A stretch of 64,000 bases of DNA, taken from contig CAVTBU010000006.1 in NCBI GenBank assembly GCA_963733035.1, positions 237,665-301,664 on the forward strand. Direction: 5' to 3'. Positions 2,549 to 13,457 of the stretch are shown here, piece after piece. Position 1 is the stretch's first letter. Each line of letters starts with the position of its first letter. The stretch comes from Pirellulales bacterium (lineage in GTDB: Bacteria > Planctomycetota > Planctomycetia > Pirellulales > PALSA-1355). The translations under genes were made by a program, and so were the position numbers. The notes beneath the pieces were generated by a model. That model worked only from the letters and a program-made list of their open reading frames with translations. It did no database searches and was not told the DNA's origin.

Positions 2549-3406
2549 CTAGTTTGGCCGCTGCATGCGCGCAGCCATTTGCACATCAAGGTCCACATGG
2601 TCTAAGGCTAAGGCCATAAGCGCATCTCGCCCGGAGGTACGAAGATACGGCAACGCCACGGCTGCACTTTGTGCATAGCTGACGTGCTCGCTGTCGGTCA
2701 ACCACTTCTCAAGTTGTTCAATCCCTTTTGGTGTATCAAATGGATGTGCACTGCAAACTCCGTCGCGACACGCGCTATTAGAACAATCGAGGAGGGCCAC
2801 GGCGAGAAAGCCTGTCGGCCGTAAGTTGCTCAATTTAACGAGCAGGCGTTTGCGTTCCGGATGATCGTTTTCATACCGTGCGAGTATGACGCTCCATAGG
2901 CTTGAATCTGGCGCAAAAGCCTTTCGTGCCGCTCGTATCACCGCATCGGTACCCTCGCGCGTACAATACATCGCCAACACGTCCAGGGCGAACAATACGT
3001 CGTCGGCCGGGTGGTGGGCCGGTGTACGCAAGCCTTCGTCGACCACTTTCAGTAGAAGGTCGCCCCCCTGCTTCGCAAGGATTGCGAAGGCGGGACACTC
3101 GGCGCTCTCAACCAAATCAAACAAGTGAATTAGTGAACTCAGTGCAGACCGGTTCACATCCATTGGAGGCAGATCCAAAATCCACTCCAGGACATGGCAA
3201 ATAGCTTCCGCGTCAATACGCGACTTGATAGGTTGCTCGCCCAGCTTCCACAGTTCGTCACTGACGCTTGCACCATGCTCCATTCCGCGTCTCAGTGCTA
3301 AAATCAGAGGCGTGTGTGTTGAGAAGTCGTCGAATCTCATCATCGGTCGGTCACCAAATCCAAATCTTCTGCCCAACTTAATGCTAGCCGAATATGTCGG
3401 GTCCAT
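2549..3406 (-). CDS. Hypothetical protein
   Basis: 285-aa ORF. Confidence 0.4.
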   Translation of the reverse strand: MDPTYSASIKLGRRFGFGDRPMMRFDDFSTHTPLILALRRGMEHGASVSDELWKLGEQPIKSRIDAEAICHVLEWILDLPPMDVNRSALSSLIHLFDLVESAECPAFAILAKQGGDLLLKVVDEGLRTPAHHPADDVLFALDVLAMYCTREGTDAVIRAARKAFAPDSSLWSVILARYENDHPERKRLLVKLSNLRPTGFLAVALLDCSNSACRDGVCSAHPFDTPKGIEQLEKWLTDSEHVSYAQSAAVALPYLRTSGRDALMALALDHVDLDVQMAARMQRPN

Positions 3407-3472
3407 CAGCAGTCAGAGAGCTCAACGCATATCTCGACCTGGCTCGAACCGGCAAGATTTTCAGATTTCCCC

Positions 3473-3502
3473 ATGAACCCACGAAACCCTTCCGGCGTCT
3501 AA
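3473..3502 (+). other. Conserved 9-codon uORF (MNPRNPSGV) at the 5' end of the candidate RNA
   Basis: Copy 2 at 24179..24208 encodes MNQRNPSGV. The Ser codon differs by two nucleotides (tcc vs agc) yet stays Ser. Confidence 0.3.
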
Positions 3503-3712
3503 GGTGTCGACAGGGTCGAGGCCGTGTTGGCGTCCGACTGCAGTTGTGACAAGCTTTTACGGGTTGTTCCTTCCATGATGTTCTTACGGCCAAGACTGTT
3601 CCAAGAACACGTAGCCGGGAGTTATTGCGCAGCACAAACGATTGCTGCAAGGTAATTCCCCCGCGCTACCGCTACGCTTGTGACGCTTGGCCTTTAGGTC
3701 TGCTGGCTGCCA

Positions 3713-3747
3713 AAGCCCGATGTCACAAGGACATCGGGCTTTTTTGT
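3713..3747 (+). terminator. Rho-independent terminator (10-bp stem, 6-nt loop, T6)
   Basis: gcccgatgtc acaagg acatcgggc tttttt. Confidence 0.7.
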
Positions 3748-3791
3748 TAGCCTCATGTCGCGCGACAGCGGGAACCAAACAACAAACGAAT

Positions 3792-3863
3792 GGGTCGGTA
3801 GCTGAGACGGTTTAGCGGTGGCCTGAAAAGCCGCAGACGAGGATTCGAGCGCCTCCCGACCCA
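3792..3863 (+). tRNA. tRNA-Phe(GAA)-like
   Basis: Acceptor gggtcgg/ccgaccc. Anticodon loop CTGAAAA. T-loop TTCGAGC. Confidence 0.5.
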
Positions 3864-3899
3864 CTGCGCTCTGCGTGCGCGCTGACGGAGAACACTCAC

Positions 3900-3972
3900 G
3901 GCTCGTTCGTCTATCGGTTCAGGATACTGCCCTTTCAAGGCGGAGAGGTGGGTTCGATTCCCACACGAGCTA
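3900..3972 (+). tRNA. tRNA-Glu(TTC)
   Basis: TCGTCTA..GGA D-arm typical of Glu. Anticodon loop CTTTCAA. Acceptor ggctcgt/acgagct. Confidence 0.6.
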
Positions 3973-3990
3973 CTGAAGCAACAAAATCAT

Positions 3991-4062
3991 CGGGCTGAAG
4001 AGGGACGGCGCCTCGCGTGCCTTGGGAGCACGAGACAGTCGGTTCGACTCCGACCTGCCCGA
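3991..4062 (+). tRNA. tRNA-Pro(TGG)
   Basis: Anticodon stem cgtgc/gcacg. Loop CTTGGGA. T-stem gtcgg/ccgac. Confidence 0.55.
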
Positions 4063-4072
4063 CTTGCGTGAC

Positions 4073-4144
4073 GGTAGTTGAGGGCTGGTTGCCCAAACCC
4101 GGCTGATAACCAGGTGGCGCTGAGTTCGATTCTCAGAACTACCA
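4073..4144 (+). tRNA. tRNA-Ile(GAT)
   Basis: Acceptor ggtagtt/aactacc is perfect. Loop CTGATAA. Confidence 0.6.
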
Positions 4145-4233
4145 CTGAACGAGAGATCACAAGAAGGAGAAACGACGTTGGCAACTCGCATGCGACTCAA
4201 ACGCATACGCCCACTCCACATTCGGGGTCGTGG

Positions 4234-4305
4234 CGTAACGGCAGCGCTTCCGCCTTTTAAGCGGGAAGGTAAGGGTTCGACTCCCTTCGGCCCCACTGCG
4301 TTGGC
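4234..4305 (+). tRNA. tRNA-Lys(TTT)
   Basis: Acceptor ggggtcg/cggcccc. Loop CTTTTAA. Confidence 0.6.
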
Positions 4306-4333
4306 TTCGGCCAGCGATCGCGGCGGCGCGTAG

Positions 4334-4406
4334 CTCAGTGGTGAGAGCAGGTCTCTTATAAGGACCAGGTCGAGGGTTCGATTCCCTCCGCGCCCACTGT
4401 GCGCGC
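4334..4406 (+). tRNA. tRNA with anticodon TAT (Ile-UAU type, unusual), C1-C72 mismatch
   Basis: D-arm gctc-agtggtgaga-gagc. Anticodon stem ggtct/ggacc. Loop CTTATAA. Confidence 0.45.
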
Positions 4407-4427
4407 AGAAACGAGGAACAACACGAA

Positions 4428-4500
4428 CGGGATCAAGGTGCTAGCGGCAGCATGCCTGGCTCTTAACCAGGTCGGTGAGGGTTCAAGTCCCTCTGATCCC
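4428..4500 (+). tRNA. tRNA-Lys(CTT)
   Basis: Acceptor gggatca/tgatccc. Loop CTCTTAA. T-loop TTCAAGT. Confidence 0.6.
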
Positions 4501-4630
4501 ACTGGAAACAGGCGAGAGGCACGAGGCCACAGGCTAGAGGGCGACCTTGAACCTCTACTGCTGACCTCTGGTCTCTCGCCTCAGGCCTCTGGCCTGTTTC
4601 GATCTTTGACAATTCGACCAGCGATTCGAC

Positions 4631-4697
4631 GCGCCCATGATGTAGCGGTAGCCTGCTGCCTTGCCATGGCGTGCGGGTTCAACTCCCGCTGGGCGCT
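4631..4697 (+). tRNA. Atypical short tRNA-like (Gly-GCC-like loop TTGCCAT), no variable region
   Basis: Acceptor gcgccca/tgggcgc is perfect. Only 67 nt. Possible pseudogene. Confidence 0.35.
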
Positions 4698-4704
4698 TCA
4701 ATTT

Positions 4705-4778
4705 CAGGGTGTGGGATAGCCTGGTAGTCCGCCTGCGTCGGGAGCAGGAGAGCGTCGGTTCAATTCCGACCACCCTGA
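4705..4778 (+). tRNA. tRNA-Pro(CGG)
   Basis: Acceptor cagggtg/caccctg. Anticodon stem cctgc/gcagg. Loop GTCGGGA. Confidence 0.5.
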
Positions 4779-4816
4779 CTTTTTGAGAACGCTCTGACCG
4801 GTACAATGAGCGAATC

Positions 4817-5134
4817 ATGAATTGGCTTACGCCGTGGACTCCGATTGTCGAAAGCGATCGCGCGGAAATGCTGACTACCGAACTTCGTCGCGAAGTTGGA
4901 GTCGGCCACGTGCTGTTCGGCATTCCGGTAAAACCAATTGCAATTCGCCAAGATTGCGACGACGTGCTCTTCGAGCTTCTTGATGGCTCGGGCCGATTCG
5001 CCGTCACTCACTTGACGTACGCTCAGCATCCCGAGCCAGATTCGCAATGGCCTGCAACTCGTCTCTGTGACGATTTGACTCAATTCGAGCGGAGCATCAT
5101 GCACGTCGATCATTCGACCGCGACCGGCTTATAG
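4817..5134 (+). CDS. Hypothetical protein embedded in the tRNA array
   Basis: 105-aa ORF between tRNAs. Confidence 0.4.
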   Translation: MNWLTPWTPIVESDRAEMLTTELRREVGVGHVLFGIPVKPIAIRQDCDDVLFELLDGSGRFAVTHLTYAQHPEPDSQWPATRLCDDLTQFERSIMHVDHSTATGL

Positions 5135-5151
5135 CGATCGACTCCAGCTCG

Positions 5152-5225
5152 GAGGGTGTAGCGAAGCCTGGCATCGCGCAAGCTCGGGGAGCTTGAGATC
5201 GCAGGTTCAAATCCTGCCACCCTGA
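5152..5225 (+). tRNA. tRNA-Pro(GGG)-like (G1-G72 mismatch)
   Basis: D-arm gcga/tcgc. Anticodon stem caagc/gcttg. Loop TCGGGGA. Confidence 0.45.
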
Positions 5226-5244
5226 CTCGAACGTCGTCGATTGT

Positions 5245-5793
5245 TCAGCGCTTCCAAATCGTTACGTCGCTGCTGATCGCGATCAATAGCGTTCGGCCAG
5301 TGTACGAAAAGCCAAACCCGCGAAGCTCACGCTCAATGGCTAGTTTCCAGAATCGTGAGGCAGGTGGATAGATGCTCTCGTACTTGCCAAGAAGCAAAAG
5401 ACTTGTGTCCGGCCAATCGATGGACAAGGCTTCGACGCCCCATCCGTCATCGGTCTGAGTCGGGAGGCCACCACCGACAAGTCCACAGACGCGAATCTCC
5501 CTTCCATCAAGTGGACCAAATCCGATGGCAGTCATGGCGTCTTTGCCGAACCACGATTCTTGATCTGATTCGTCACGATCTCGAGCGACTTTTTCGCCGG
5601 TGCGGCAATCGATGATTCCACGCCCTTGAGACGACAGTACCAGTAGCAGTTCAGAGTCGTCCGCAAAACCAATCTCAGTAAGTCCGCCAATTGCGACGGA
5701 CGCGACGAACGACCATGGCTCTGGCGGAGCGGTGACCGCAGCACGGCGAATTTTGTCTCGCACAGGTTCGAGGTGGTCCATAAGGTTTGCCAT
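5245..5793 (-). CDS. Hypothetical protein embedded in the tRNA array
   Basis: 182-aa ORF. Confidence 0.4.
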   Translation of the reverse strand: MANLMDHLEPVRDKIRRAAVTAPPEPWSFVASVAIGGLTEIGFADDSELLLVLSSQGRGIIDCRTGEKVARDRDESDQESWFGKDAMTAIGFGPLDGREIRVCGLVGGGLPTQTDDGWGVEALSIDWPDTSLLLLGKYESIYPPASRFWKLAIERELRGFGFSYTGRTLLIAISSDVTIWKR

Positions 5794-5836
5794 GGGTTCA
5801 TAGGATGGCTCGCCAGTATACCGGATTGATCAATAT

Positions 5837-5911
5837 TGCGGTGGGGCCTGTGTTGGTACAGGCAGGCGCCTGTTAAGCGCCCCTTCGCAGGTTCGATTCC
5901 TGCCGCCGCAG
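5837..5911 (+). tRNA. tRNA-Asn(GTT)
   Basis: D-stem gcct/aggc. Anticodon stem ggcgc/gcgcc. Loop CTGTTAA. Confidence 0.6.
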
Positions 5912-5933
5912 CTTTCTAGGGACGGAAGGGCAA

Positions 5934-6017
5934 GCCAATGGGCGATGGCAGCTGTTTCGAAAACAGTCGAGCGATGAGCCTTGAGGGTTCGACTCCCTCT
6001 CCTTCCGCTTCGTGCTC
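5934..6017 (+). tRNA. tRNA-Ser(CGA), class II
   Basis: Loop TTCGAAA. 16-nt variable arm. T-stem gaggg/ccctc. Confidence 0.55.
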
Positions 6018-6021
6018 TTGG

Positions 6022-6093
6022 CCGATCGGCAGAGGCGTCAGCCTTCCAAGCTGAACAGGCGGGTTCGATTCCCGCAGAGCACTTTCGATCAAT
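6022..6093 (+). tRNA. tRNA-Gly(TCC)
   Basis: Acceptor gtgctct/agagcac. Anticodon stem tcagc/gctga. Loop CTTCCAA. Confidence 0.6.
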
Positions 6094-6106
6094 CATTCGG
6101 GGATCG

Positions 6107-6177
6107 GCTAATGGTCGGCCGCCTGGCTTTGAACCAGGCTATGGTAGTTCGAATCTACCTCCCCGAGCTTGGAAGAC
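6107..6177 (+). tRNA. tRNA-Gln(TTG)
   Basis: Acceptor tcgggga/tccccga. Stem cctgg/ccagg. Loop CTTTGAA. Confidence 0.55.
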
Positions 6178-6184
6178 TACCGCC

Positions 6185-6262
6185 CTGCGCTCGATTGCCG
6201 CCCGGCAATCGTGCTCGGTTGCTGGTTTGATTCCTTCTCCCCGAACTCGGTGACAAAACATT
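6185..6262 (+). pseudogene. Degenerate tRNA-like element (T-stem not pairable). Related to 12700-12772.
   Basis: Shared ctaccgccctgcgctcg..gtgctcggttgctggtt. The hairpin has a CCC loop with compensatory stem changes between copies. Confidence 0.35.
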
Positions 6263-6336
6263 CCGGGGTAGCTGCTGCTGGTAGTGGCGCCTGGCTCTGA
6301 ACCAGGAGGTCGTTGGTTCGATTCCAACTCCCGGAG
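6262..6336 (+). tRNA. tRNA-Gln(CTG)
   Basis: Stem cctgg/ccagg. Loop CTCTGAA. T-stem gttgg/ccaac. Confidence 0.55.
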
Positions 6337-6356
6337 CTGTTTCGAACGACACGATC

Positions 6357-6442
6357 GGAAGTCATCCGGCCGGATGAGGAGCCTGTCTTGAAAACAGGTG
6401 GCGGCCTCGCGCCGCTTGTGGGTTCGAGTCCCACGGCTTCCG
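6357..6442 (+). tRNA. tRNA-Ser(TGA), class II
   Basis: Stem cctgt/acagg. Loop CTTGAAA. 20-nt variable arm. Confidence 0.55.
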
Positions 6443-6470
6443 CTCAACAGGTCGATTCGTTCAGCAACAC

Positions 6471-6541
6471 AGTCCCGTGGTCCAACGGCAAGACTCCTGC
6501 GTCACATCCAGGAAACGATGGTTCAACTCCATCCGGGACTA
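6471..6541 (+). tRNA. tRNA-Val(CAC)
   Basis: Acceptor agtcccg/cgggact. Loop GTCACAT. Same family as Val(GAC) at 7870. Confidence 0.5.
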
Positions 6542-6547
6542 CTCGAT

Positions 6548-6621
6548 GTCCAGGTACGCCAATTGGCAGAGCGGCACGGCTTAAACCCGCGCGGATGCCG
6601 GTTCGACTCCGGCCTTGGGCA
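6548..6621 (+). tRNA. Class I tRNA with anticodon TAA (Leu-type anticodon but no long variable arm)
   Basis: Loop CTTAAAC. Only 5-nt variable region. Confidence 0.4.
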
Positions 6622-6631
6622 CTGTCAACGC

Positions 6632-6704
6632 GGCTCGGTCGGCAACGGCAGACCACCTTGGCTTAGAACCAAGGATGCTGTGGGTTCGAATCCCACCTGA
6701 GCTA
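6632..6704 (+). tRNA. Class I tRNA with anticodon TAG (Leu-type anticodon, short variable arm)
   Basis: Stem cttgg/ccaag is perfect. Loop CTTAGAA. 73 nt. Confidence 0.45.
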
Positions 6705-6718
6705 TTTAGTAGAGACTC

Positions 6719-6793
6719 GTCCTCGTGGAGTAGTCTGGAGTGCTCGCCTGCCTGTCACGCAGGAGATCACGGGTTCAAATCCCGTCGGGGACG
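6719..6793 (+). tRNA. tRNA-Asp(GTC)
   Basis: Stem cctgc/gcagg. Loop CTGTCAC. Acceptor gtcctcg/cggggac. Confidence 0.6.
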
Positions 6794-6875
6794 CCTTTTG
6801 ATTGTTGTACGCGAAATCGTCTGTGGCGCGGAGTGTTCCGCAACGCCTCGACGAACTGCAACGCAACGTAAATCT

Positions 6876-6949
6876 GGCACGGTACGCCAATCGGCTGAGC
6901 GGCGAAGCTCAAACCTTCGTGTCTGCGGGTTCGACTCCCGCCTGTGCCA
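6876..6949 (+). tRNA. Class I tRNA with anticodon CAA (Leu-type anticodon, short variable arm)
   Basis: Stem cgaag/cttcg. Loop CTCAAAC. Confidence 0.45.
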
Positions 6950-6955
6950 CTGTTC

Positions 6956-7042
6956 GGGTTGTGCTCCTCGTGGCGGCCTGTAAAGCCGTTGTCACAAAAG
7001 AAGCGAGGTGGGCGACGAATGGTTCGATTCCTTCACAACCCA
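6956..7042 (+). tRNA. tRNA-Tyr(GTA)-like, class II, weak T-stem
   Basis: Acceptor gggttgt/acaaccc is perfect. Loop CTGTAAA. Long variable arm. T-stem has only 3 of 5 pairs. Confidence 0.4.
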
Positions 7043-7047
7043 ATTGA

Positions 7048-7120
7048 GGCCCGCTCGTCTATCGGTTGAGGACGCCAGCCTCTCAAGCTGGAAGGACGGG
7101 TTCGATTCCCGTGCGGGTCA
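7048..7120 (+). tRNA. tRNA-Glu(CTC)
   Basis: TCGTCTATCGG..GGAC D-arm. Stem ccagc/gctgg. Loop CTCTCAA. Confidence 0.6.
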
Positions 7121-7126
7121 CTGTAT

Positions 7127-7209
7127 GGCCAAGTGGTGTAACTGGTAAACACGCGACGCTCAGAACGTCGTGCCCTTGCGGCGTGGGAGTTCGAGTCTCC
7201 CCTTGGTCA
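7127..7209 (+). tRNA. tRNA-Leu(CAG), class II
   Basis: Stem cgacg/cgtcg. Loop CTCAGAA. 14-nt variable arm. T-loop TTCGAGT. Confidence 0.6.
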
Positions 7210-7226
7210 CTGAAATATTGAATTGA

Positions 7227-7295
7227 CGCAGGTGAGCCAGTGCTCAGCCGAGTTTCATAAGCTCAGCCCGTCGGGTGCGACACCCGAACCTGCAA
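7227..7295 (+). tRNA. tRNA-Met(CAT)-like with C1-A72 mismatch (initiator-like) and non-canonical T-loop TGCGACA
   Basis: Loop TTCATAA. Acceptor cgcaggt/acctgca. Short (69 nt). Confidence 0.35.
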
Positions 7296-7300
7296 CTTAC

Positions 7301-7376
7301 GGCCGGGTACGCAAACTGGCAAAGCGACGAGGTCGAGAGCCTCGTGATTTTGTGAGTTCGACTCTCACTCCGGTCA
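7301..7376 (+). tRNA. tRNA with anticodon GAG (Leu-GAG-like, 9-nt variable region)
   Basis: Stem cgagg/cctcg. Loop TCGAGAG. T-stem gtgag/ctcac. Confidence 0.45.
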
Positions 7377-7405
7377 CTTGAATGAGATTGCGGCCAAAAC
7401 TGATC

Positions 7406-7843
7406 CTACAGTGCGAGCACGCGGCACACCTCTCGAATCCAGATCTCACCGATCCATTCCAGGTCGGCATACGGAGAGATGCGTGAAGCGGTCCAGCCGC
7501 TTTCGTCGAGTACTCGCATCATGCCGGGTGCCGCCAAGGCGTTCGTTGTGTGGATGATCACTGGGCATGTCGGCGGTTTCGTCGCGAGAAAGTCGGCCAC
7601 ATCGCGTCCGGTGCCGGGGTCACGCATGACACCGCCGATCAATCGGTTGGGTCCGAGATCGTGATCGAGGCAGATGAGAATCGGTTCGCCGCAGTGAACC
7701 TTCAGCCAGACGATCATATCTGGTGCATTGTCGAACACAATTGATTCATGGCCTGGGCAGCGACTTGCGAGGCACGGCAACATTGCGGCGATCCGTTCCG
7801 GCTCGTCGTCAAGAATTGCGACTACTTTTGATTCGCTTGCCAT
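7406..7843 (-). CDS. Stand-alone receiver (REC/CheY-like) fold protein, possibly of the cyclic-phosphate-processing receiver type
   Basis: ILDDEPE acidic pocket, CLDHDLG candidate phospho-acceptor region, no output domain, 145 aa. Sits inside the tRNA array. Confidence 0.4.
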   Translation of the reverse strand: MASESKVVAILDDEPERIAAMLPCLASRCPGHESIVFDNAPDMIVWLKVHCGEPILICLDHDLGPNRLIGGVMRDPGTGRDVADFLATKPPTCPVIIHTTNALAAPGMMRVLDESGWTASRISPYADLEWIGEIWIREVCRVLAL

Positions 7844-7869
7844 GTCAACAAGTCTAACAAATCACATTC

Positions 7870-7942
7870 GATCCCGTGGTCCAACGGCTACGACGCCTGG
7901 ATGACACCCAGGAGGCAGATGGTTCAACTCCATCCGGGATCA
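7870..7942 (+). tRNA. tRNA-Val(GAC)
   Basis: Acceptor gatcccg/cgggatc is perfect. Stem cctgg/ccagg. Loop ATGACAC. Confidence 0.55.
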
Positions 7943-7952
7943 TTTGCGAATC

Positions 7953-8023
7953 GGTCTGTAGGTGTGTTCGGCGGCACACCTCCTCGGTAAGGAGGAAGGC
8001 CGGGTTCGACTCCCGGACGGACC
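7953..8023 (+). tRNA. tRNA-Thr(GGT)
   Basis: Stem cctcc/ggagg is perfect. Loop TCGGTAA. Confidence 0.5.
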
Positions 8024-8093
8024 TTCAACCGAGCACGCGACATAGGCGTGCCGCGAGCGCAGGGCGAAAGGAATCGAGATGGATAGAAGTGAG

Positions 8094-8167
8094 GGGCTGC
8101 TGGTCCAACGGCAAGACGCTTGGATTGAAGTCAGCGTCGATGGCAACGGCGGATCGACGCTCGTCAA
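8094..8167 (+). pseudogene. Degenerate tRNA-like fragment lacking a T-arm
   Basis: Acceptor and D region gggctgctggtccaacggcaaga match neighbouring tRNAs, but there is no TTCGA T-loop. Confidence 0.3.
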
Positions 8168-8173
8168 ATACAT

Positions 8174-8244
8174 GGGCTGCTCGTCCAACGGGAAGACGCC
8201 TGGCTTGCAACCAGGAAATCGGGGTTCGACTCCCCGGCGGTCCA
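8174..8244 (+). tRNA. tRNA-Ala(TGC)
   Basis: G3-U70 present. Stem cctgg/ccagg. Loop CTTGCAA. Confidence 0.6.
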
Positions 8245-8255
8245 CTGAATAAAAC

Positions 8256-8326
8256 GGGCTCATGGTCCAAAGGGAAGACATCAGGCTGGCAGTCTGAAGA
8301 TCCGGGTTCAATTCCCGGTGAGTCCA
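8256..8326 (+). tRNA. tRNA-Ala(GGC)
   Basis: G3-U70 present. Stem tcagg/tctga. Loop CTGGCAG. Confidence 0.55.
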
Positions 8327-8344
8327 CTGATACGGGAAACCTTT

Positions 8345-8647
8345 TTACATCGGAATACCGGCATCAATCGCAGCTTGTCGATTGTGGCCGGGTTCGAGAA
8401 GTGTCGTTCCTTGATAGACCTCGACGTTCGCGTCCATGAGATCAGAAAGAGGCAGCTCAACATAGACCTGGGTATTACGGTCGGTCTCGACAACGTTGAA
8501 CCACGGTTGTGCAACGAAACTGCGCACCTGGATTTCCAGTGACTCGCCGGGCAACAGCGTGAAGTCGTGAGGCCACGGCTCGACCCAAATGACGCGCAAT
8601 TGCGCTTCGTCGTTGGTCACGCCGATCTTTGCGAAGAACTCACTCAT
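8345..8647 (-). CDS. Hypothetical protein
   Basis: 100-aa ORF ending 43 bp from the IS copy. Confidence 0.4.
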   Translation of the reverse strand: MSEFFAKIGVTNDEAQLRVIWVEPWPHDFTLLPGESLEIQVRSFVAQPWFNVVETDRNTQVYVELPLSDLMDANVEVYQGTTLLEPGHNRQAAIDAGIPM

Positions 8648-8689
8648 TACCCTAGCGTATTGCGGAAGCGTACGACAAACAAGTGATTC

Positions 8690-10500
8690 GGAAGGTAGAT
8701 GCTATGGCAGCGGCGAGGGACTGCGTTAGGCTCCGAGTCACGAGGGATTGTTTTATCCGTTGTTTTGAGGAGCTCAATCATGGCCACTCGACCGCAAGAC
8801 TGCAGCACAACGAAGCCAGTACTGTTCCTGGGTCTCGAATTAGGGCAGCGAACCTGGAAGTTGGGGTTCACCGTGGGTTTGGGTCAGAAGCCGCGGCGAC
8901 GTGAGATCGCTGCCGGTTGCATTCAGGCACTGAAACGAGAGATCAATGAGAGTAAGCAACGTTTTGGTCTGCCTGCGGATGTGGAGGTGATTAGCTGTTA
9001 CGAGGCAGGCCGTGATGGGTTTTGGCTGCATCGTTGGCTGGTGTCTGAGAACGTCACAAACTTGGTGGTTGACTCGTCTAGCATTCAAGTGCCGCGGCGG
9101 CAGCGACGGGCCAAGACCGATCGTCTGGATTTGGAACAATTGTTGACCATGTTGGTGCGCTGGCATCAGGGCGAGTCGAAAGTCTGGAGCGTGGTGACGG
9201 TGCCGAGTGAAGCGGAAGAGGACGTTCGGCATTTGCATCGCGAGTTGGAAACGCTGCGGGCGGAACAGACCAGCCACATCAATCGAATCAAGGGGCTGTT
9301 GATCGGTTGCGGCGTGGTGATTGATGTGAACCGCTGGCTACCGAAACGGCTCAAAGCAATACGGCTTTGGAATGGCTCGCCGTTGACCAGCGATTTGCGG
9401 CAACGGGTATTGCGGGAGTTCGAGCGGATGCAGGTGGTCAATCGACAGGTTCGCGAGCTGGAAAAGGAGCGTGCCGCCCGGATTCGCAGCAACGAAACTG
9501 ACAAGAGCGTCGCCCAGGTGCGGACGTTGTTGGGCGTGAAGGGCATCGGCGTCAACAGCGCGTGGATGTACGTGCAGGAGGTGTTTGGCTGGCGAAAGAT
9601 CAAGAATCGTCGTCAATTGGGTGCGCTCGTGGGGCTGACCGGCAGTCCGTATAGCAGCGGCAACTTGGAGCGCGATCAGGGAATTACAAAGGCTGGAAAC
9701 CGCCGGATGCGAACAATGGCTGTCGAAATCGCCTGGGGATGGTTGGCATTCCAACCCGGCAGCGATCTGAGCCGTTGGTATCACGATCGATTCGCGGCCG
9801 GAAACAAGCGTCTTCGTCGCATTGGAATTGTGGCGCTGGCAAGAAAGCTGTTGGTGGAGTTGTGGAAATACCTGGAGACCGGCGTGCCGCCTTGCAACGC
9901 GGAGCTGACCGAGTGGGAGGACAAGATTCACTACACCCCTTCCCTTACGCCGGCGTAGCGATTGGATCGGTGCGAGTATGGAGCGTCTGAACGACTGACG
10001 TCGAGACTGGAAAGCGACCGAGTATCCGGCGGGTACGAGTTAGGCTCACCGAAAGGTAGATGGGATCGCTTTCATTATGGCTTCCCGAGAGCGTCCAGGA
10101 CGCATAGGGCATAGGGTGATCGGCGATGATGCCGGCACGGATAGAAGCTAGTCGTTGGCCTCGGCCACAACGATCAGCGGAAGCCGCCAGTCATGACGTT
10201 GAACCGACAGAAGAAGTGTTTTGAGGAATGGCAGGACAAATGAATGTGCATCCCAGCACGGCTCCAGCCGCGGCGTGCGGCCAGAGCCGTCACGGAATCA
10301 TTCACCCGCCCTGACCTGGCTATCCCTTGTTGGGTTGCTCTTCAGCAGAGCTCAACTCCGTTTCACCAGGCAGGCGAAAGTATATCACGACTCAACGTTG
10401 GATGAGGAGCTTGACAGGTGCGCATCCATAGAAGCCGGATACGGTTGGCCGGGCCGCTCTGCTAAGGCGGTTCCCGCTCGTCGGGATGAGGGTTCGAATC
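8690..10500 (+). mobile_element. IS110-family insertion sequence, copy 1. The 1811-bp repeat unit is identical apart from 1 nt to 25952-27762.
   Basis: Repeat boundaries defined by alignment of the two copies. The transposase is followed by a ~540-bp non-coding 3' region. No terminal inverted repeats, as expected for IS110/IS1111. Confidence 0.75.
8780..9958 (+). CDS. IS110-family transposase (DEDD N-terminus plus a C-terminal transposase_20-like region)
   Basis: N-terminal VLFLGLELGQRTWKLGF and C-terminal LLGVKGIGVNSAWMYVQEVFGW..ALARKLLVELWKYL motifs. Start moved to MATRPQD. Confidence 0.8.
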   Translation: MATRPQDCSTTKPVLFLGLELGQRTWKLGFTVGLGQKPRRREIAAGCIQALKREINESKQRFGLPADVEVISCYEAGRDGFWLHRWLVSENVTNLVVDSSSIQVPRRQRRAKTDRLDLEQLLTMLVRWHQGESKVWSVVTVPSEAEEDVRHLHRELETLRAEQTSHINRIKGLLIGCGVVIDVNRWLPKRLKAIRLWNGSPLTSDLRQRVLREFERMQVVNRQVRELEKERAARIRSNETDKSVAQVRTLLGVKGIGVNSAWMYVQEVFGWRKIKNRRQLGALVGLTGSPYSSGNLERDQGITKAGNRRMRTMAVEIAWGWLAFQPGSDLSRWYHDRFAAGNKRLRRIGIVALARKLLVELWKYLETGVPPCNAELTEWEDKIHYTPSLTPA

Positions 10501-10554
10501 GGGCACCGCGGCAAAGCCGTGGTCTACCTTCCGCTGGTGAAAAGGCTCCTCCAA

Positions 10555-10917
10555 TCACTTCGCCTGTTCCACGTCGATCGCGGCCCGCAGCTCCTCAACA
10601 TTCGCGAATTGTTGAAGTGGAAGATCGAACGAGTAGTCGAGATCAATGATTCGAAGGGGGATGCCGAGATGCCTTTGAACGATCAGCGCGGCACTTAGGG
10701 CGGCGTCTGTCATCCCCGATATCGAGATCGCGTCGCGTTTCCGGCTGAGGTCGACCATCGTGAAGTCGTCGCCCTCAGAATAGTCCGCTTCAATTGGGAT
10801 TCCGATGGACGTATTATATCGAATCTCACCGAATCCCCTGACCGACTTGAAAATGTCTTGCAACGCCTCGACGGTAAATAGCCGTTTGTCGTCGCTGAAC
10901 AGCAGAAGACTTTGCAT
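10555..10917 (-). CDS. Hypothetical protein, candidate immunity-type partner just downstream of the nuclease-like toxin C-terminus
   Basis: 120-aa acidic ORF 15 bp downstream of 10933. Confidence 0.35.
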   Translation of the reverse strand: MQSLLLFSDDKRLFTVEALQDIFKSVRGFGEIRYNTSIGIPIEADYSEGDDFTMVDLSRKRDAISISGMTDAALSAALIVQRHLGIPLRIIDLDYSFDLPLQQFANVEELRAAIDVEQAK

Positions 10918-10932
10918 AGCAATTACGTACTC

Positions 10933-12260
10933 CTAGGGCTCGAGTCGCACCTTGCCGGGCACGGATAGTTCCTTGAGCAGGGCTTCAAAAGCTGACTTCG
11001 CCTCGGGCGAGTTGGTGATGATTTCGATTGATTTAAAAGGCGTTTCGCCACTCTTGATAATTGTGCGAACTCTCGTCAAATCGTCACGCACTTTGTCCAG
11101 AATCACGGCCCGGATGTCCTCTCGGATAGATGAGCCGGGCACATAAGGACTCTTGCCGGCCTTCGCTACGTGCTTCGCTTCAAGAATTATCGTATCCCGG
11201 TATCCATCGATTGCAAAAGACTGGCCGCCGCCTGATATCGTGTAGTTGTAGGGGCCGGTCTGCTTGATTTCATATTGACTCGCTGCCGATTTCGTGGGTG
11301 TAGGCTTGCGAGGAAGCTTCGCGACGAAGTCATCAAGAGTGCCTCCCACTTTTCCAGGAACTTTGCGAAGCGCCCTGCCGAGCACAGCCTTCCCGAGTCG
11401 CAGGATTGCCGGTGCGGCCACGACGGCGGATGCAATTTCAAACTCAATGCCGGTTGACTGCAAACCACTCGGTGTGCCGCCCCTGGCTACGGCATGCCCG
11501 ACTTCCTCGATACCCTTGCCACCGACGATCGTCTCTGCCGGGGTGAACGCCGAATGCTGTTTCGCTGGGCGTGATAGCTCTTAATGCGTTTCGGCAATTC
11601 CTTGATTTGGCGACGGGTGTGATCCAATGCATTCTTTGTCTGCCACCAAGCGTGTGCCAGGTCCAGCATGTGTGAGTCGGAACCGTCGGACTCGTCGCTT
11701 CCGCCGCTACCGGGCCCCTTGCTGCGGGGTGAGCGACTCTTGCCGGTGTTGATTCCGCCCCCACCGCCCCCCTTATTGATCCACTGCCCGCCGATCGGCG
11801 TTCCCTTGGGCGCCCGGGGATGATCGGCCTCGTTCCATTCGACAACAAGTGAGTCTGATTCAGTGAATCGCTCGATCGCATGCCACGTCCTGCTGTCCCG
11901 TGCCTCGATCTGTTGAATCGCACGCAGTTTGTCTTCCGCCTCGGCCGAGATCTGAGCTGCCCATTCCAGAAGCTCACGATCGCGACGAGCGTTGGCTTCG
12001 GCGGATTGCAGCTCGCGCAGCTCCTTTGCCTGTCGATACGAGAATCGTGCTAGCCGCCCCAACTCCTCGCGTTGAGCTTTCGCCTGTGCCTCGGGAGGCA
12101 TCATTCGTGGAATCGGCCTACCGAGAATCGCTTGTGCAAATAGCCAACCTTCGCTGGGCTGCGAAACTCCGGCGACATCCCGTGTCTTTTTGTAACGGTC
12201 CATGACGCTCCTCTTCATGGGTGCGAGAAAAAGAGCCCGCACCCGGTGCGCGCTTCGCAA
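10933..12260 (-). pseudogene. Paralog B of the 352..1749 gene, disrupted by at least two frameshifts. Its C-terminal domain is PD-(D/E)xK nuclease-like.
   Basis: Three consecutive reading frames (11487..12260, 11444..11977, 10933..11463) each match successive parts of paralog A (RDRELLEW / DHPR motif / HHWVPIGV ~ MHWITPV). The first frame switch is at the C/G homopolymer tract near 11755-11775. The C-terminus has AIDGYRD..ILEAKH. Confidence 0.6.
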
Positions 12261-12290
12261 GCGCGCACCGATTACGGGCTCTTTGGATAC
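12224..12290 (-). terminator. Hairpin-in-hairpin plus U-run on the minus strand, mirror copy of 300-350, immediately 5' of paralog B
   Basis: agagcccgtaatcgg..ccgggtgcgggctct with inner stem tgcgcgc/gcgcgca. The inner stem differs from copy A by compensatory changes. Confidence 0.55.
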
Positions 12291-12365
12291 TCGTTGTCAG
12301 GGGCCTACTGGCACGAGGACGTGCAGTCGAGCTCTTCGGATACCCCGGTCACTCATGGTGACCTT
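12268..12365. repeat. Right arm of the inverted repeat (partner of 208-298)
   Basis: Reverse-complement alignment. Confidence 0.8.
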
Positions 12366-12525
12366 GCCCAGCGATCAGCTCGCCGATTGATTCGGAACCT
12401 AGCACAAAGGGCGGCCTAGTTTCTAGTCGAAGATTTAATGGAGTGATTGGTCTGAGCAAATACGTCGCGCGAACCGTGCGGCGTGGATCTGTTTCCTTTT
12501 CTAATGTCTCAGCTCGCCTCGATGG

Positions 12526-12605
12526 TGAAACGGACGATCACTCCTTGCTTCTAACAAGGCCCGGTATTTCTGGGAGACGCGGGGGTTCGAATCCTGGTCG
12601 GGGCA
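12526..12605 (+). tRNA. tRNA-Arg(TCT)-like with an enlarged variable region and an imperfect T-stem
   Basis: Acceptor gcctcga/tcggggc. Stem ccttg/caagg. Loop CTTCTAA. Related to 27793-27865. Confidence 0.4.
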
Positions 12606-12699
12606 TTTTGAAGAAGAGTGGTTGGTGGTCAGTGGCTAGTGGTCAGTGAAGCAAGGGGCGGCGAACACAAAGCGTGCTCGTCTGTCCTACCTGTGGCCT

Positions 12700-12772: not shown

Positions 12773-12793
12773 ACTGAGAAGGCGGCGAGTTGA

Positions 12794-13444: not shown

Positions 13445-13457
13445 TCACCGCGCATTT

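Follow-up and report, generated by a model that had tools for sequence, protein, structure and literature searches.

The window, a 64-kb stretch of DNA from a Pirellulales-type planctomycete, carries a horizontally acquired L-type array ("L-array"), a known class of long transferred tRNA arrays, and this array is one member of a very large, widespread family of mobile arrays that share a fixed gene order. ARAGORN called 27 tRNA genes within 3792-8327, all on the + strand (6 per kb); its total for the window is 45 tRNAs. Matches to Rfam tRNA RF00005 back 25 of the 27 array genes, tRNA-Pro(UGG) and tRNA-Leu(GAG) having an ARAGORN call alone, and tRNA-Ser(UGA) is scored as tRNA-Sec-like by Rfam (44.9 bits). 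Rfam also supplied a 28th gene that lacks an ARAGORN call, the 67-nt tRNA-Gly(GCC). Together with three tRNA-like remnants (Tyr(GUA)-like, CAU and Ala-like), the total is about 31, as in a preliminary description of this DNA, which had proposed a dense single-strand array with non-canonical members. That description had read 17 amino acids from the array; ARAGORN supports 14 isotypes, Tyr and Met being represented by defective or non-canonical copies only. Its further claim that the accessory region serves all 20 amino acids depends on counting the defective Tyr and the initiator-like CAU genes, because His and Trp tRNAs occur in the window only in a second island.

A mobile tRNA array family

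Searching with a 17-mer from one odd tRNA yielded at least 120 metagenome contigs; about 80 of them share the gene order of the window array and have as many as 43 tRNAs. Collinear arrays lie at MAG locus L007, on a 94-kb IMG/VR viral contig (L025) and on a 2.79-Mb MAG contig (L153), and planctomycete MAG chromosomes are also among the carriers; a 34-mer of tRNA-Asp(GUC) is common to the window, L007 and L025. The proximal order is Phe-Glu-Pro-Ile-Lys-Ile(UAU)-Lys-...-Leu-Leu-Asp-Leu-Tyr-Glu-Leu-Met-Leu-Val-Thr-Ala-Ala, followed distally by Ser-Arg-His-[HNH]-Trp-...-Cys-[SPFH], and the family provides an almost complete second tRNA set for decoding. HNH and SPFH are the only proteins common to the family arrays. 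The HNH gene is present in 18 related arrays and has more than 7800 homologues, those that carry a name being assigned to Pirellulales or Planctomycetes. In L115, L116 and L143 the arrays are followed by 70-75% identical copies of the SPFH/Band-7 gene. A conserved acceptor-truncated element recurs at 30969-31034, with equivalent matches in L115 and L150, and an interspersed repeat of about 55 nt recurs at 12705-12756 and in many copies in the L007 array. Homologues of the cREC_REC cargo gene were found at 24 loci, inside an array only in L007, and for the 182-aa ORF neither a family nor a homologue in related arrays was found. The sequenced phages and plasmids searched gave no match to the array.

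The window holds two related (paralogous) islands, A (about 3457-15722) and B (24163-40425), with a G+C content of 57.5-59% vs 61-62% in the flanks. Both have a host tRNA-Glu(CUC) gene as their integration site, and a 16-nt att-like repeat is identical to the 3' end of that gene (40410-40425). Island A is a deletion derivative, since the 5' part of its SPFH/Band-7 gene is joined to an integrase 3' remnant. The proximal genes of island B are Phe (with a D-loop insertion), Leu(CAG), an initiator-like CAU gene, Leu(GAG), Val(GAC), Ala(UGC) and Ala(GGC) (with an insertion); its distal order is Ser(GCU), Arg(UCU), His, HNH endonuclease (27984-28580), Trp, Thr(UGU), Arg(CCG), Arg(UCG), YbjN-like ORF, Arg(GCG), HEPN/AbiV-like ORF (30084-30743) and Cys. 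No phage structural genes were found in the island context. The integrase, the att-like repeat, the lower G+C and the viral and metagenomic relatives bear out the earlier view of an accessory, mobile-element array.

Table 1. Positions of array, leader and island features in the window
Feature	Position	Strand	Remarks
ECF-sigma-type promoter-like site, TGAACC-N16-CGTCTAA	3474-3502	+	about 290 nt upstream of first tRNA
Leader ORF, 26 codons, MMFLRPRLFQEHVAGSYCAAQTIAAR then stop	3575-3655	+	truncated in array A copy
Conserved box CGCTTGTGAC	3675-3684	+	holds family stop TGA; predicted antiterminator 5' strand
Intrinsic-terminator-like hairpin and T-run	3712-3751	+	before tRNA-Phe; 13 pairs, 7 G-C (terminator scan)
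tRNA-Phe(GAA)	3792-3864	+	first array gene; ARAGORN, Rfam
tRNA-Glu(UUC)	3900-3973	+	
tRNA-Pro(UGG)	3991-4063	+	
tRNA-Ile(GAU)	4073-4145	+	
tRNA-Lys(UUU)	4224-4296	+	ARAGORN, Rfam
tRNA-Ile(UAU)	4324-4397	+	ARAGORN, Rfam
tRNA-Lys(CUU)	4429-4502	+	ARAGORN, Rfam
tRNA-Gly(GCC), 67 nt	4631-4697	+	Rfam 34.7 bits; orthologues 71-72 nt
tRNA-Pro(CGG)	4705-4779	+	
Inserted ORF	4817-5134		between tRNA-Pro(CGG) and tRNA-Pro(GGG)
tRNA-Pro(GGG)	5152-5226	+	C33, loop UCGGGGA
Inserted ORF, 182 aa	5245-5793	-	
tRNA-Asn(GUU), -Ser(CGA), -Gly(UCC), -Gln(UUG)	5837-6168	+	ARAGORN, Rfam
Interspersed repeat	6175-6227	+	variable hairpin
tRNA-Gln(CUG), -Ser(UGA), -Val(CAC)	6262-6542	+	ARAGORN, Rfam
tRNA-Leu(UAA)	6548-6622	+	class-I, short variable loop
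tRNA-Leu(UAG)	6632-6704	+	class-I, short variable loop
tRNA-Asp(GUC)	6719-6795	+	ARAGORN, Rfam
tRNA-Leu(CAA)	6876-6950	+	class-I
Degenerate tRNA-Tyr(GUA)-like remnant	6955-7042	+	weak tRNA-Sec-like match, 24 bits
tRNA-Glu(CUC)	7048-7121	+	ARAGORN, Rfam
tRNA-Leu(CAG)	7127-7210	+	ARAGORN, Rfam
Initiator-like tRNA(CAU), type M2	7227-7295	+	weak Rfam match; no ARAGORN call
tRNA-Leu(GAG)	7301-7377	+	class-I, C33, loop UCGAGAG
cREC_REC (cyclic-phosphate-processing receiver) cargo gene	7406-7843	-	PF20274, E 1.1e-10; within array
tRNA-Val(GAC), -Thr(GGU, C33), Ala-like 5' fragment, -Ala(UGC), -Ala(GGC)	7870-8327	+	fragment at about 8095-8160
IS110-family element	8690-10500	+	transposase 8699-9958; inserted into tRNA-Ser(GCU) 5' end
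tRNA-Ser(GCU) remnant	10433-10500		disrupted by IS110 element
Tox-REase-2 domain protein	10933-11463	-	in 2-kb insertion replacing 3' part of tRNA-Ser(GCU)
tRNA-Arg(UCU) with insertion	12516-12605	+	distal array A
YbjN-like ORF	12794-13444	+	distal array A
ORF	13380-14042	+	distal array A
tRNA-Arg(GCG)	13457-13531	+	distal array A
tRNA-Cys(GCA)	14087-14158	+	distal array A
Acceptor-truncated tRNA-like element	14307-14372	+	Rfam tRNA 51.1 bits, model positions 4-67
SPFH/Band-7 5' part fused to integrase 3' remnant	14776-15690	+	island A
att-like repeat CGGGGAGTCGAACCCC	15707-15722	+	
Island B leader and contracted, partly degenerate array	24163-25689	+	promoter-like site 24180-24208, ORF from 24282, box 24407-24416, terminator 24448-24479
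Island B distal array	27695-30819	+	starts with Ser(GCU) lacking 5' end
SPFH/Band-7 gene	31397-32557	+	closes conserved array module
BrxL-like Lon ATPase	35025-36692	-	island B backbone
Split Toprim/DUF3987 primase	36685-38933	+	island B backbone
Tyrosine integrase	39083-40309	+	end of island B, adjoins host tRNA-Glu
Host tRNA-Glu(CUC)	40401-40474	-	integration site

Conserved oddities and damaged genes

Comparison of sequences across the family identifies the short-arm tRNA-Leu, tRNA-Ile(UAU), the reduced initiator-like CAU tRNA, C33 and a C-U trailer without CCA as conserved family traits. The preliminary description had rightly noted Leu-anticodon genes without the long arm, which number four (UAA, UAG, CAA and GAG) and not three; the only array Leu gene with a long arm is Leu(CAG), and its arm is short. 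These class-I tRNAs had been regarded as aberrant or of uncertain identity. This reading finds no support: the LeuRS elements they retain, their covariation and their recurrence in the Anabaena L-array speak against it (PMC9976931, PMC8421152). The bacterial LeuRS identity set is present in them (U8, A14, A15, G18G19, U48 and A73); in E. coli, LeuRS depends on A73 and these tertiary elements and does not need the long arm (PMC9976931). In the family alignment U8, A14, G18G19, U48 and A73 are invariant, 96.6% of cells are paired and 18 of 21 pairs show compensatory changes, a covariation equalled by none of 500 shuffles; the family tRNA-Leu(UAA) and (UAG) are 74 nt long with A73.

The other odd members named earlier were recovered as well. 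The TAT-anticodon gene is a tRNA-Ile(UAU); 28 arrays of the family have this type, which shows the loop CUUAUAA and A73. The initiator-like M2 tRNA(CAU) combines a C1xA72 mismatch, A73, a reduced D-arm and the T-loop TGCGACA. The type is kept at the same position in many arrays, its acceptor stem showing compensatory changes, and the window copy has one anticodon-stem mismatch. C33 replaces U33 in the array genes Pro(GGG), Leu(GAG) and Thr(GGU), and in 23 of the family's 26 Leu(GAG) genes; both array Ala genes have G3.U70. As described earlier, no array gene encodes CCA. The CTG said to follow the discriminator in most members does so in 13 of 27, and we reject it as a motif: the conserved feature is C74-U75 (22 of 27 array genes; 1062 of 1327 tRNAs across the family), a C-U trailer found also in two chromosomal planctomycete tRNAs.

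Unlike these conserved oddities, the copies of Gly, Tyr and Ser(GCU) show real damage. The 67-nt tRNA-Gly(GCC), which had been flagged for its missing variable region, is probably defective because it has lost the variable loop that its orthologues have. Aligned with family Tyr genes, the Tyr remnant has lost its acceptor and D arms and gained a 13-nt insertion. The IS110 element has a 99.9%-identical second copy at 25952-27762. Damaged genes in array A are Gly, Tyr, CAU and Ser, and disrupted tRNA genes also occur in window array B and in the L007 array. Such visible erosion is consistent with relaxed selection in chromosomal copies.

The leader and its predicted control

In 19 aligned leaders the promoter-like blocks GAAC and C.TC are invariant, and a regular expression for the site matches 17; no sigma-70-like site was found in 3300-8700. 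Family leader ORFs have 31-63 codons and end ...PLRL-TGA within the conserved box. An ORF stops at the box TGA in 20 of 20 non-window leaders despite 11 different lengths, so the reading frame is preserved in the family; the third-codon-position excess is modest (72/70/92 differences, from only four sequences), and both window copies carry a frameshift. The terminator hairpin is 99.5% paired in 19 leaders, with both sides changed at 3 pairs. When the 3' arm is left out of MFE folding, about 18 of 20 leaders pair the box with the 5' arm of the terminator (-16 to -24 kcal/mol). This antiterminator helix shows one compensatory change, a few G.U-compatible changes and end mismatches, its covariation support being weak because its bases are nearly invariant. 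From sequence, the conserved promoter-like site, leader ORF and terminator/antiterminator pair suggest ribosome-sensing attenuation.

We consider it moderately probable that the whole is explained by a mobile L-type array, on a tRNA-Glu-integrated island, that serves as an attenuation-controlled back-up tRNA set. For this model we infer a transcription start, attenuation, processing and a physiological role. Transcription from the conserved ECF-sigma-type promoter, some 250-300 nt before the array, would give a single precursor and would have to pass a leader containing a small ORF and two hairpins, antiterminator and terminator, that exclude each other. In family members, arrival of a ribosome at the leader stop codon, inside the antiterminator strand, would let the terminator form and keep the array silent; failed translation (tRNA depletion or cleavage, ribosome poisoning) would favor the antiterminator, and spare tRNAs would be made. 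RNase P and a 3' endonuclease such as RNase Z, proposed because no gene encodes CCA, would cut the precursor, the latter at the C-U trailer, before CCA addition. The array tRNAs would then form a back-up pool, possibly nuclease-insensitive. In the source genome the module is partly eroded: four tRNA genes are damaged, an IS disrupts a Ser gene and the leader ORFs carry frameshifts. Regulation there may therefore be lost or constitutive.

Another L-array for comparison is that of Anabaena. That array is regulated by a repressor, whereas the predicted control in the window family is leader attenuation, and the functional analogy is indirect because regulation differs. Both arrays have the same short tRNA-Leu type, and the window HNH protein is 35% identical (E 9e-31) to Anabaena all8564, a homing endonuclease adjoining the L-array. 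In Anabaena, translational stress induces the operon, and 23 of the 26 tRNAs of the array undergo aminoacylation in vivo (PMC8421152, PMC10272220).

Gene content of the array

Our analysis confirms the dense tRNA array of the preliminary description and places it in the first of the two genomic islands of the window (island A). ARAGORN detected 45 tRNA genes in the window, 27 of which belong to this array (array A), and one gene recovered with Rfam together with three weaker units brings the count to about 31 tRNA or tRNA-like units (see table). The Rfam tRNA model backs 25 of the 27 ARAGORN genes at E values up to 1; Pro(UGG) and Leu(GAG) were found by ARAGORN alone, and Ser(UGA) scores as tRNA-Sec-like. 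With 28 genes in 4536 nt, or about 6.2 per kb, array A lies above both thresholds of the tRNA array unit (at least 20 genes and at least 2 per kb; Tran et al., 2016). All its genes are on the forward strand, separated by spacers of mostly 4–150 nt and by three interposed opposite-strand or unknown ORFs, and the ARAGORN isotypes follow a non-periodic order, with no repeating pattern, in an array far longer than accretive ones. Shared orientation and close spacing are characteristic of L-arrays, the long, horizontally transferred tRNA arrays whose prototype is that of Anabaena PCC 7120, and make the genes of array A candidates for co-transcription.

Intact members score 31–67 bits with Rfam in the window and 34–71 bits in compact arrays, which is alike. 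The damaged members of the array A copy are Gly(GCC), which has no variable loop, a Tyr remnant and an Ala fragment. Arg(UCU) bears an insertion, and identical IS110 copies interrupt the 5′ end of Ser(GCU) in each island. Array B, on the second island (island B), is a contracted and partly damaged counterpart of array A, with insertions in Phe and Ala(GGC). The two IS110-family copies are 99.9% identical and interrupt the same point, the 5′ acceptor strand of tRNA-Ser(GCU), while the island sequences around them are only 78–98% identical. Because the copies are near-identical and share their insertion point in diverged surroundings, sequence-specific targeting of tRNA-Ser(GCU), or gene conversion, is suggested.

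Two further elements were detected near the tRNA genes. A repeat of about 55 nt, in which CTACCGCCCTGCGCTCG and CGTGCTCGGTTGCTGGTT frame a hairpin of variable sequence, occurs amid tRNA genes of the window and in at least seven copies in a Planctomycetaceae MAG (L007), in which similar hairpin-bearing insertions split three tRNA genes (Pro, Gln and Leu); it resembles a small element of mobility or recombination that is peculiar to these arrays. A conserved tRNA-like element lies between tRNA-Cys and the SPFH gene in both islands, with counterparts in two related loci (L115, 1433–1496, and L150, 1815–1880). It has canonical D, anticodon and T arms (51 bits with Rfam), an acceptor stem of only 4 bp and the unusual loop CUUUGCA, and may serve as a processing signal or a decoy, or be left over from an old att site.

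None of the array genes encodes CCA, as the preliminary description had stated. Its second claim on the 3′ ends, a CTG after the discriminator, holds for 13 of the 27 genes and fails as a general signal, since the conserved part is C-U (22/27). In the family of collinear mobile arrays with fixed gene order to which array A belongs, the trailer C-U-N follows 1062 of 1327 tRNAs. CTG was also ruled out as a special signal of the array, C-U being present in two chromosomal planctomycete tRNAs, the host tRNA-Glu and the tRNA-Gln of another planctomycete; because these two share it, the C-U trailer is probably a clade-wide 3′-processing context. In B. subtilis, RNase Z favors CCA-less precursors with a U nearby. 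The host tRNA-Glu and the Glu genes of array A have a G1•U72 wobble and A73, the corresponding elements of E. coli tRNA-Glu being G1-C72 and G73.

Positions of the features discussed, in window coordinates
Feature	Position	Strand	Remark
ECF-sigma-promoter-like site	3474–3502		leader of array A
Array A	3792–8327	+	27 ARAGORN genes
Array tRNA-Glu genes	3900–3973; 7048–7121		G1•U72, A73
tRNA-Gly(GCC)	4631–4697	+	67 nt, variable loop deleted; Rfam; identity by synteny
tRNA-Pro(GGG)	5152–5226		C33
Repeat of about 55 nt	6175–6227; 12705–12756		
Tyr(GUA)-like remnant	6955–7042	+	degenerate
CAU tRNA-like unit	7227–7295	+	T-loop TGCGACA
tRNA-Leu(GAG)	7301–7377; 24893–24967		C33
cREC_REC gene	7406–7843	−	inside array A
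tRNA-Thr(GGU)	7953–8024		C33
Ala-like 5′ fragment	~8095–8160	+	
IS110-family copies	8690–10500; 25952–27762		in tRNA-Ser(GCU)
tRNA-like element	14307–14372; 30969–31034		
ORF fusing the 5′ part of the SPFH gene with the 3′ end of the integrase gene	14776–15690		att-like 16-mer after it
Copy of host tRNA-Glu end and integrase gene end	15393–15722		
kdpFABC-kdpDE	15986–23848		between the islands
HNH gene	27984–28580		island B
BrxL-like Lon ATPase and Toprim/DUF3987 primase	35025–38933		region
Tyrosine integrase gene	39083–40309		closes island B
Host tRNA-Glu(CUC)	40401–40474	−	G1•U72, A73

Short tRNA-Leu genes, reduced CAU tRNAs and C33

The preliminary description had singled out Leu-anticodon tRNAs without the long variable arm as odd members. 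The absence of the arm is real: the variable loop has 4–6 nt in Leu(UAA), Leu(UAG), Leu(CAA) and Leu(GAG), an arm (a short one) is found in Leu(CAG) only, and the same holds family-wide. These four genes are devoid of the long variable arm of class II tRNA-Leu and are called class-I Leu here. The suspicion of an aberrant or uncertain identity found no support in an alignment of 43 distinct Leu(CAA/UAA/GAG) genes of 74 nt, to which the window contributes three. Stem cells are paired at 96.6% and compensatory double changes occur at 18 of 21 pairs; none of 500 shuffles was as good, and slid controls pair at 26–45%. U8, A14, G18, G19, U48, G53, T54, T55, C56, A58 and A73 are invariant in the 43 genes and A15 is found in at least 90%, and the sequences carry the E. 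coli-type LeuRS identity set (A73, A14, A15-U48, G18G19 and the D/T-loop interaction). E. coli LeuRS needs these elements and can dispense with the long arm in vitro, the arm of tRNA-Leu being otherwise missing only in animal mitochondria according to reviews (PMC9976931). Because the stems covary and the LeuRS elements stay invariant, the class-I Leu tRNAs most likely accept leucine and are under selection, rather than being decayed or recoded.

Near-identical class-I tRNA-Leu(UAG) genes are also present in viral and metagenome contigs with another array organization, some with a G+C content of 47% (L026/L027) and others with 58% (L028/L029/L109). These genes show compensatory changes in the acceptor stem and, in L026/L027, adjoin normal long-arm tRNA-Leu genes. 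Judging by these differently organized contigs, the short tRNA-Leu(UAG) is spread well beyond the array family studied here.

Two other unusual members noted in the preliminary description are conserved as well. A tRNA-Ile(UAU) occupies the same position in 28 arrays, and the initiator-like CAU tRNA with the T-loop TGCGACA belongs to a type conserved in the family. Two types of CAU tRNA, of about 70 nt and with a reduced D-arm, are conserved between Leu(CAG) and Leu(GAG): M1, with a normal T-loop, and M2, in which 1:72 is unpaired and the T-loop reads TGCGACC/A. Only M2 occurs in the window, and its array A copy shows C1×A72, A73 and one mismatch in the anticodon stem. C1×A72 and A73 are initiator features. 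The three G-C pairs (29–31:39–41) and the canonical D and T loops of initiators are absent from M2, whose anticodon stem ends with GGC:GCC in the family (the mismatch affecting array A's copy) and whose T-loop is TGCGACA, not TTCRANY.

A feature missed in the preliminary description is C33. Of 1150 distinct family tRNAs, 181 have this base in place of the nearly universal U33. By isoacceptor, C33 is found in Glu(CUC) (34/38), Leu(GAG) (23/26), Pro(GGG) (8/10), Thr(CGU) (15/24) and Val(CAC) (9/16). The window has it in three isoacceptors and four genes, Leu(GAG) being counted twice. No C33 was found in the Anabaena L-array.

A mobile family, its islands and its leader

A blastn comparison of the array with 72,556 plasmids and 50,697 phages produced single-tRNA matches only, and no sequenced relative. 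When the cREC protein encoded inside the array was used to query a genome collection, 24 loci were obtained, and at one of these, L007, there is an array collinear with that of the window (70–90% identity per tRNA). A 34-mer of tRNA-Asp retrieved a 94-kb IMG/VR viral contig (L025), in which 25 tRNAs are packed into 2.8 kb in the same order and with all the odd members. A 17-mer of the short tRNA-Leu(UAG) retrieved 5 viral contigs and at least 120 metagenome contigs. About 80 of these metagenome contigs have their tRNA genes in one recurrent order, Phe-Glu-Pro-Pro-Ile-Lys-Ile(UAU)-Lys-Thr-Gly-Pro-Asn-Ser-Gly-Gln-Gln-Ser-Val-Leu(UAA)-Leu(UAG)-Asp-Leu(CAA)-Tyr-Glu-Leu(CAG)-Met-Leu(GAG)-Val-Thr-Ala-Ala-Ser-Arg-His-Trp-...-Cys; up to 43 genes are present in a single array among the matches listed. 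The array is accompanied by just two proteins, an HNH endonuclease encoded between His and Trp in 18 loci (70–80% identity) and an SPFH protein encoded after Cys. More than 7800 homologs of the HNH protein were obtained at E values below 1e-20; the named ones are from Pirellulales/Planctomycetes and some are on contigs of 2–3 Mb. A protein 100% identical to the HNH protein of the window is encoded on a contig of 1.07 Mb.

The neighborhoods of the arrays differ among L007, L025, the window and a 2.79-Mb MAG contig (L153), in which a syntenic array of 24 tRNAs is flanked by a resolvase-containing region and ordinary metabolic genes. From these relatives, the module can be seen to be mobile, widespread and not bound to one locus. 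Horizontal acquisition and sporadic distribution, as expected of an L-array, are apparent from the integrase, the att repeat, the lower G+C content, the differing flanks and the presence of the array in 1 of 24 genomes.

Islands A (about 3457–15722) and B (24163–40425) are paralogous, with collinear blocks at 78–99.9% identity, and their G+C content is 57.5–59% versus 61–62% outside. The integrase gene of island B abuts the 3′ end of the host tRNA-Glu(CUC), the one host tRNA gene in the window, and a 16-nt copy of this tRNA end and the last 300 nt of the integrase gene recur at the end of island A. Island A, in which the SPFH gene is fused to this integrase remnant, thus derives from a B-like island through an internal loss of about 8 kb. 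Genes of the window include those for a Ser/Thr kinase, GFO/IDH/MocA proteins and xylose-isomerase-like TIM barrels and a kdp operon, and every named homolog indicates the chromosome of a Pirellulales-type planctomycete. The potassium-uptake operon kdp, complete and of host-like G+C content (62%), may be cargo of an island or, alternatively, host DNA enclosed when the islands integrated in tandem.

The cargo of the islands is typical of defense or conflict islands: Tox-REase-2, two YbjN-like, HEPN/AbiV-like, HNH and SPFH proteins, a BrxL-like Lon ATPase, cREC_REC and a primase. The BrxL-like gene is solitary, with 734 bits to PADLOC BrxL and no other BREX genes nearby, and the Toprim/DUF3987 primase is encoded by two overlapping ORFs, apparently split by a frameshift. 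The cREC_REC gene (PF20274, cyclic-phosphate-processing receiver) has a domain name that points to RNA repair and echoes, by analogy, the rtcB gene near cyanobacterial L-arrays. As a partner of the array it was rejected and is considered incidental cargo, no tRNAs being close by at 23 of the 24 loci of the genome-collection scan. PHROGs and Pfam scans detected no phage structural genes among the island ORFs, and a complete prophage was ruled out by the absence of PHROG structural matches.

A leader of about 330 nt precedes tRNA-Phe in both window arrays and in all related arrays with enough upstream sequence. It contains an ECF-sigma-promoter-like site, GAACC-N16/17-CGTCTA, and, after an invariant ATG, an ORF whose product reads M(M/T)S(F/L)R(P/S)S...G(R)(Y/F)AGQPANTLP..PLRL-stop. 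In 20 of 20 non-window leaders this ORF ends at the same TGA, inside the box CGCTTGTGAC, a conserved leader element. Its length takes 11 different values, between 31 and 63 codons, and the constant end despite these lengths means that all indels kept the frame. Both window leader ORFs have lost the frame of the conserved C-terminus, their stop codons preceding the box by 23 and 54 nt; this points to a broken regulator in the window, possibly with constitutive read-through, or else to assembly indels. A terminator, made of a G+C-rich hairpin and a U-run, lies 25–35 nt past the box and is paired at 99.5% over 19 leaders. The gap between terminator and tRNA-Phe is 4–5 nt in most arrays versus 40 nt in the window. 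Without the 3′ arm of the terminator, the minimum free energy structure pairs the box with the 5′ arm in about 18 of the 20 leaders, with energies of −16 to −24 kcal/mol; in L084 and L085 the arm sequence differs and a neighboring segment pairs instead in the same predictions. In this box/5′-arm helix, whose strands both hardly vary, covariation is accordingly weak. In the family, the stop codon of the leader ORF sits in the predicted antiterminator strand.

A scan of positions 3300–8700 found no sigma-70-like promoter, on which ground a sigma-70 reading of the box was rejected, and a sigma-54 reading was rejected by eye, the spacing being one base off. An Rfam search of the leader for a T-box or another known riboswitch (E up to 1) gave only a chance sRNA-like match on the terminator, and these readings were rejected too. 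According to the predicted folds, the box would be better explained as the end of the ORF and a strand of the antiterminator, and we infer that the leader has the architecture of a ribosome-mediated attenuator. In such a model, a ribosome at the leader stop codon would occlude the antiterminator strand and allow termination, and stalled or absent ribosomes would permit read-through into the tRNAs. This mode of control would fit the stress-inducibility of the Anabaena array, and the leader architecture hints that the window family may likewise be silent in normal growth and induced by translational stress. A literature search returned no report of ribosome-mediated attenuation for a tRNA operon.

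Function of the array and comparison with known systems

The role of long mobile tRNA arrays is debated, the proposals being codon supply, stress back-up and counter-defense. The best-supported reading of our data is that the array is a conditionally expressed set of back-up tRNAs. An ordinary core tRNA operon, inherited vertically in the lineage, might be suspected from the frequency of family arrays in Pirellulales and planctomycete MAGs, some of them on megabase contigs, but is hardly credible: the array is flanked by an integrase, an att repeat, IS and cargo genes, it is duplicated in diverged tandem islands, its surroundings in L153 and L007 are not those of the window and one copy is in a viral contig, it was present in 1 of the 24 species genomes found via the intra-array cREC gene, and its tRNA-Glu(CUC) is clearly unlike the host tRNA-Glu(CUC). 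The preliminary description had rightly seen an accessory feature of a mobile element, and the integrase, the att repeat and the viral relative already largely refute the core-operon reading. Compensation for codon usage, with tRNAs serving codons that are rare in the host and common in the carrier element, is improbable as well. The island G+C content is 3–5% below that of the flanks, and Ile(UAU), Leu(UAA) and Lys(UUU) read A/U-ending codons. However, nearly every anticodon is present, among them several for codons that end in G or C (Leu CAG and GAG, Pro CGG and GGG, Ala GGC), which makes a general set; the islands encode few genes, and L-arrays add redundancy, not new anticodons, in published surveys (PMC8421152).

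It is conceivable, if rather unlikely, that the array is a decaying and silent leftover of a phage or mobile element, persisting because it is rarely transcribed and owing its conservation to its mobile stage. The contraction of array B with its insertions in Phe and Ala(GGC), the defective Gly, Tyr, CAU, Ala and IS110-cut Ser(GCU) units of array A, the unrelated ORFs and repeat element between tRNAs, the frameshifts in both leader ORFs, the three array genes split by insertions in L007 and the poor transcription reported for L-arrays (PMC8421152) would all agree with decay. Yet 27 of the 31 units of array A are still good cloverleaves with Rfam scores like those of compact arrays, stems are kept by compensatory changes in orthologs over about 80 contigs, the presence of the module on megabase chromosomal MAG contigs in many lineages argues for retention, and the related Anabaena array is functional once induced (PMC8421152). 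A counter-defense or immunity device, a live alternative like the relic, has a similarly low probability; in it, C33, altered positions 32/38 and class-I Leu bodies would make poor substrates for anticodon nucleases, whether these come from competing defense systems or are toxins of the island itself (HEPN/AbiV-type and others), so that translation continues when host tRNAs are cut. The concentration of C33 in particular isoacceptors, the HEPN/AbiV-like, Tox-REase-2, BrxL-like and cREC_REC genes of the islands and the relative in a viral contig are consistent with such a device, and phage tRNAs with changed anticodon loops do evade tRNA-targeting defenses (PMC10264068, PMC11555353, PMC11464382). 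But HNH and SPFH alone are conserved together with the array and the defense-like cargo is not, the Anabaena L-array has no C33, and the explanation overlaps with that of back-up tRNAs.

A more far-reaching model, to which we give a rather low probability, is a self-contained emergency translation kit, in which the leader-peptide attenuator would sense failing translation directly from ribosome position and switch on a full set of structurally divergent tRNAs (class-I Leu, C33 loops, reduced-arm CAU) that escape the tRNA-directed nucleases or modifiers behind the failure. If true, it would be the first reported ribosome-attenuated tRNA operon in the literature we searched, with natural, functional bacterial tRNA-Leu devoid of the long arm and C33 elongators. 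The presence and mobility of the array are unsurprising; greater interest attaches to the conserved class-I tRNA-Leu, to C33, to the reduced CAU tRNAs and to the unit of leader ORF and terminator. The leader unit, if confirmed, would provide a mechanism for switching on ‘cryptic’ arrays and couple their expression to the translation state, and the class-I Leu and C33 tRNAs, if confirmed, would be of interest to work on tRNA identity and to synthetic-biology work on orthogonal tRNAs. The array also ties this planctomycete island to a very large environmental family of fixed gene order.

L-arrays are a known class, and surveys already list Planctomycetes among the carrier phyla (PMC4758250, PMC8421152). 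We scanned the prototype, on the delta plasmid of Anabaena PCC 7120, for tRNAs and compared it with array A. Both are long, non-periodic, encoded on one strand and horizontally acquired, with some pseudogenes, and the genes of array A are presumably supernumerary like those of Anabaena. The HNH protein encoded beside the Anabaena array (all8564) is 35% identical to that of the window (E 9e-31), this L-array partner being present in island B and absent, with the His-Trp segment, from island A. RNA-repair-type genes are near both arrays (rtcB in Anabaena, cREC_REC in the window), and the four tRNA-Leu genes of Anabaena are likewise short (74–75 nt to N73), with the D-loop CAAUUGGCAGA and A73; the window array shares this D-loop type and A73. 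In contrast, gene order differs, blastn shows no nucleotide similarity, CCA is encoded in about half of the Anabaena array genes and in none of the window array, and the Anabaena array is on a plasmid whereas the window element is a chromosomal island. Aminoacylation in vivo was seen for 23 of the 26 array tRNAs of Anabaena, and the array, controlled by TrcR, is silent until translation is impaired (PMC8421152, PMC10272220). Regulation there relies on the TrcR repressor acting on direct repeats, whereas the conserved upstream region of the window family combines a promoter-like site of ECF type with a leader ORF and a putative terminator/antiterminator pair. The units of Tran et al., 2016 (PMC4758250), such as that of ICEAfe1 of Acidithiobacillus ferrooxidans, and the Mycobacterium arrays (PMC5966550) resemble ours in their integrative elements and, presumably, added redundancy; class-I tRNA-Leu, C33, reduced CAU tRNAs and a leader attenuator are not described in those papers.

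The tRNA clusters of phages (T4, T5 and cluster C1 mycobacteriophages) are similar in head-to-tail packing, a homing endonuclease within and deviations in anticodon loops, and are used against tRNA-targeting defenses (PMC10264068, PMC11555353, PMC11464382). The window islands differ in having no phage structural or replication module except a primase, and the window array is larger and more complete than most of these clusters. The closest compact relative lies in the viral contig L025, of which an 11-kb segment was read. The leader resembles ribosome-mediated attenuators (trp, his and pheA, and the antibiotic-sensing leaders of msrD, yxjB and bmrCD; PMC10314930, PMC6851288, PMC3082878) in its short conserved ORF followed by hairpins predicted to be mutually exclusive, with the ORF end overlapping the predicted antiterminator strand in the family; it differs in that the targets would be tRNAs instead of proteins, that it has no run of one regulatory codon and that the ORF is frameshifted in both window copies. 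Finally, the tRNA-Leu of animal mitochondria (PMC9976931) shares with the class-I Leu genes a variable loop of 4–5 nt and the reliance on A73 and core elements, whereas the class-I Leu genes have full-size D and T arms of bacterial type and an E. coli-like Leu D-loop, and are bacterial or phage-borne, beside one long-arm Leu(CAG).
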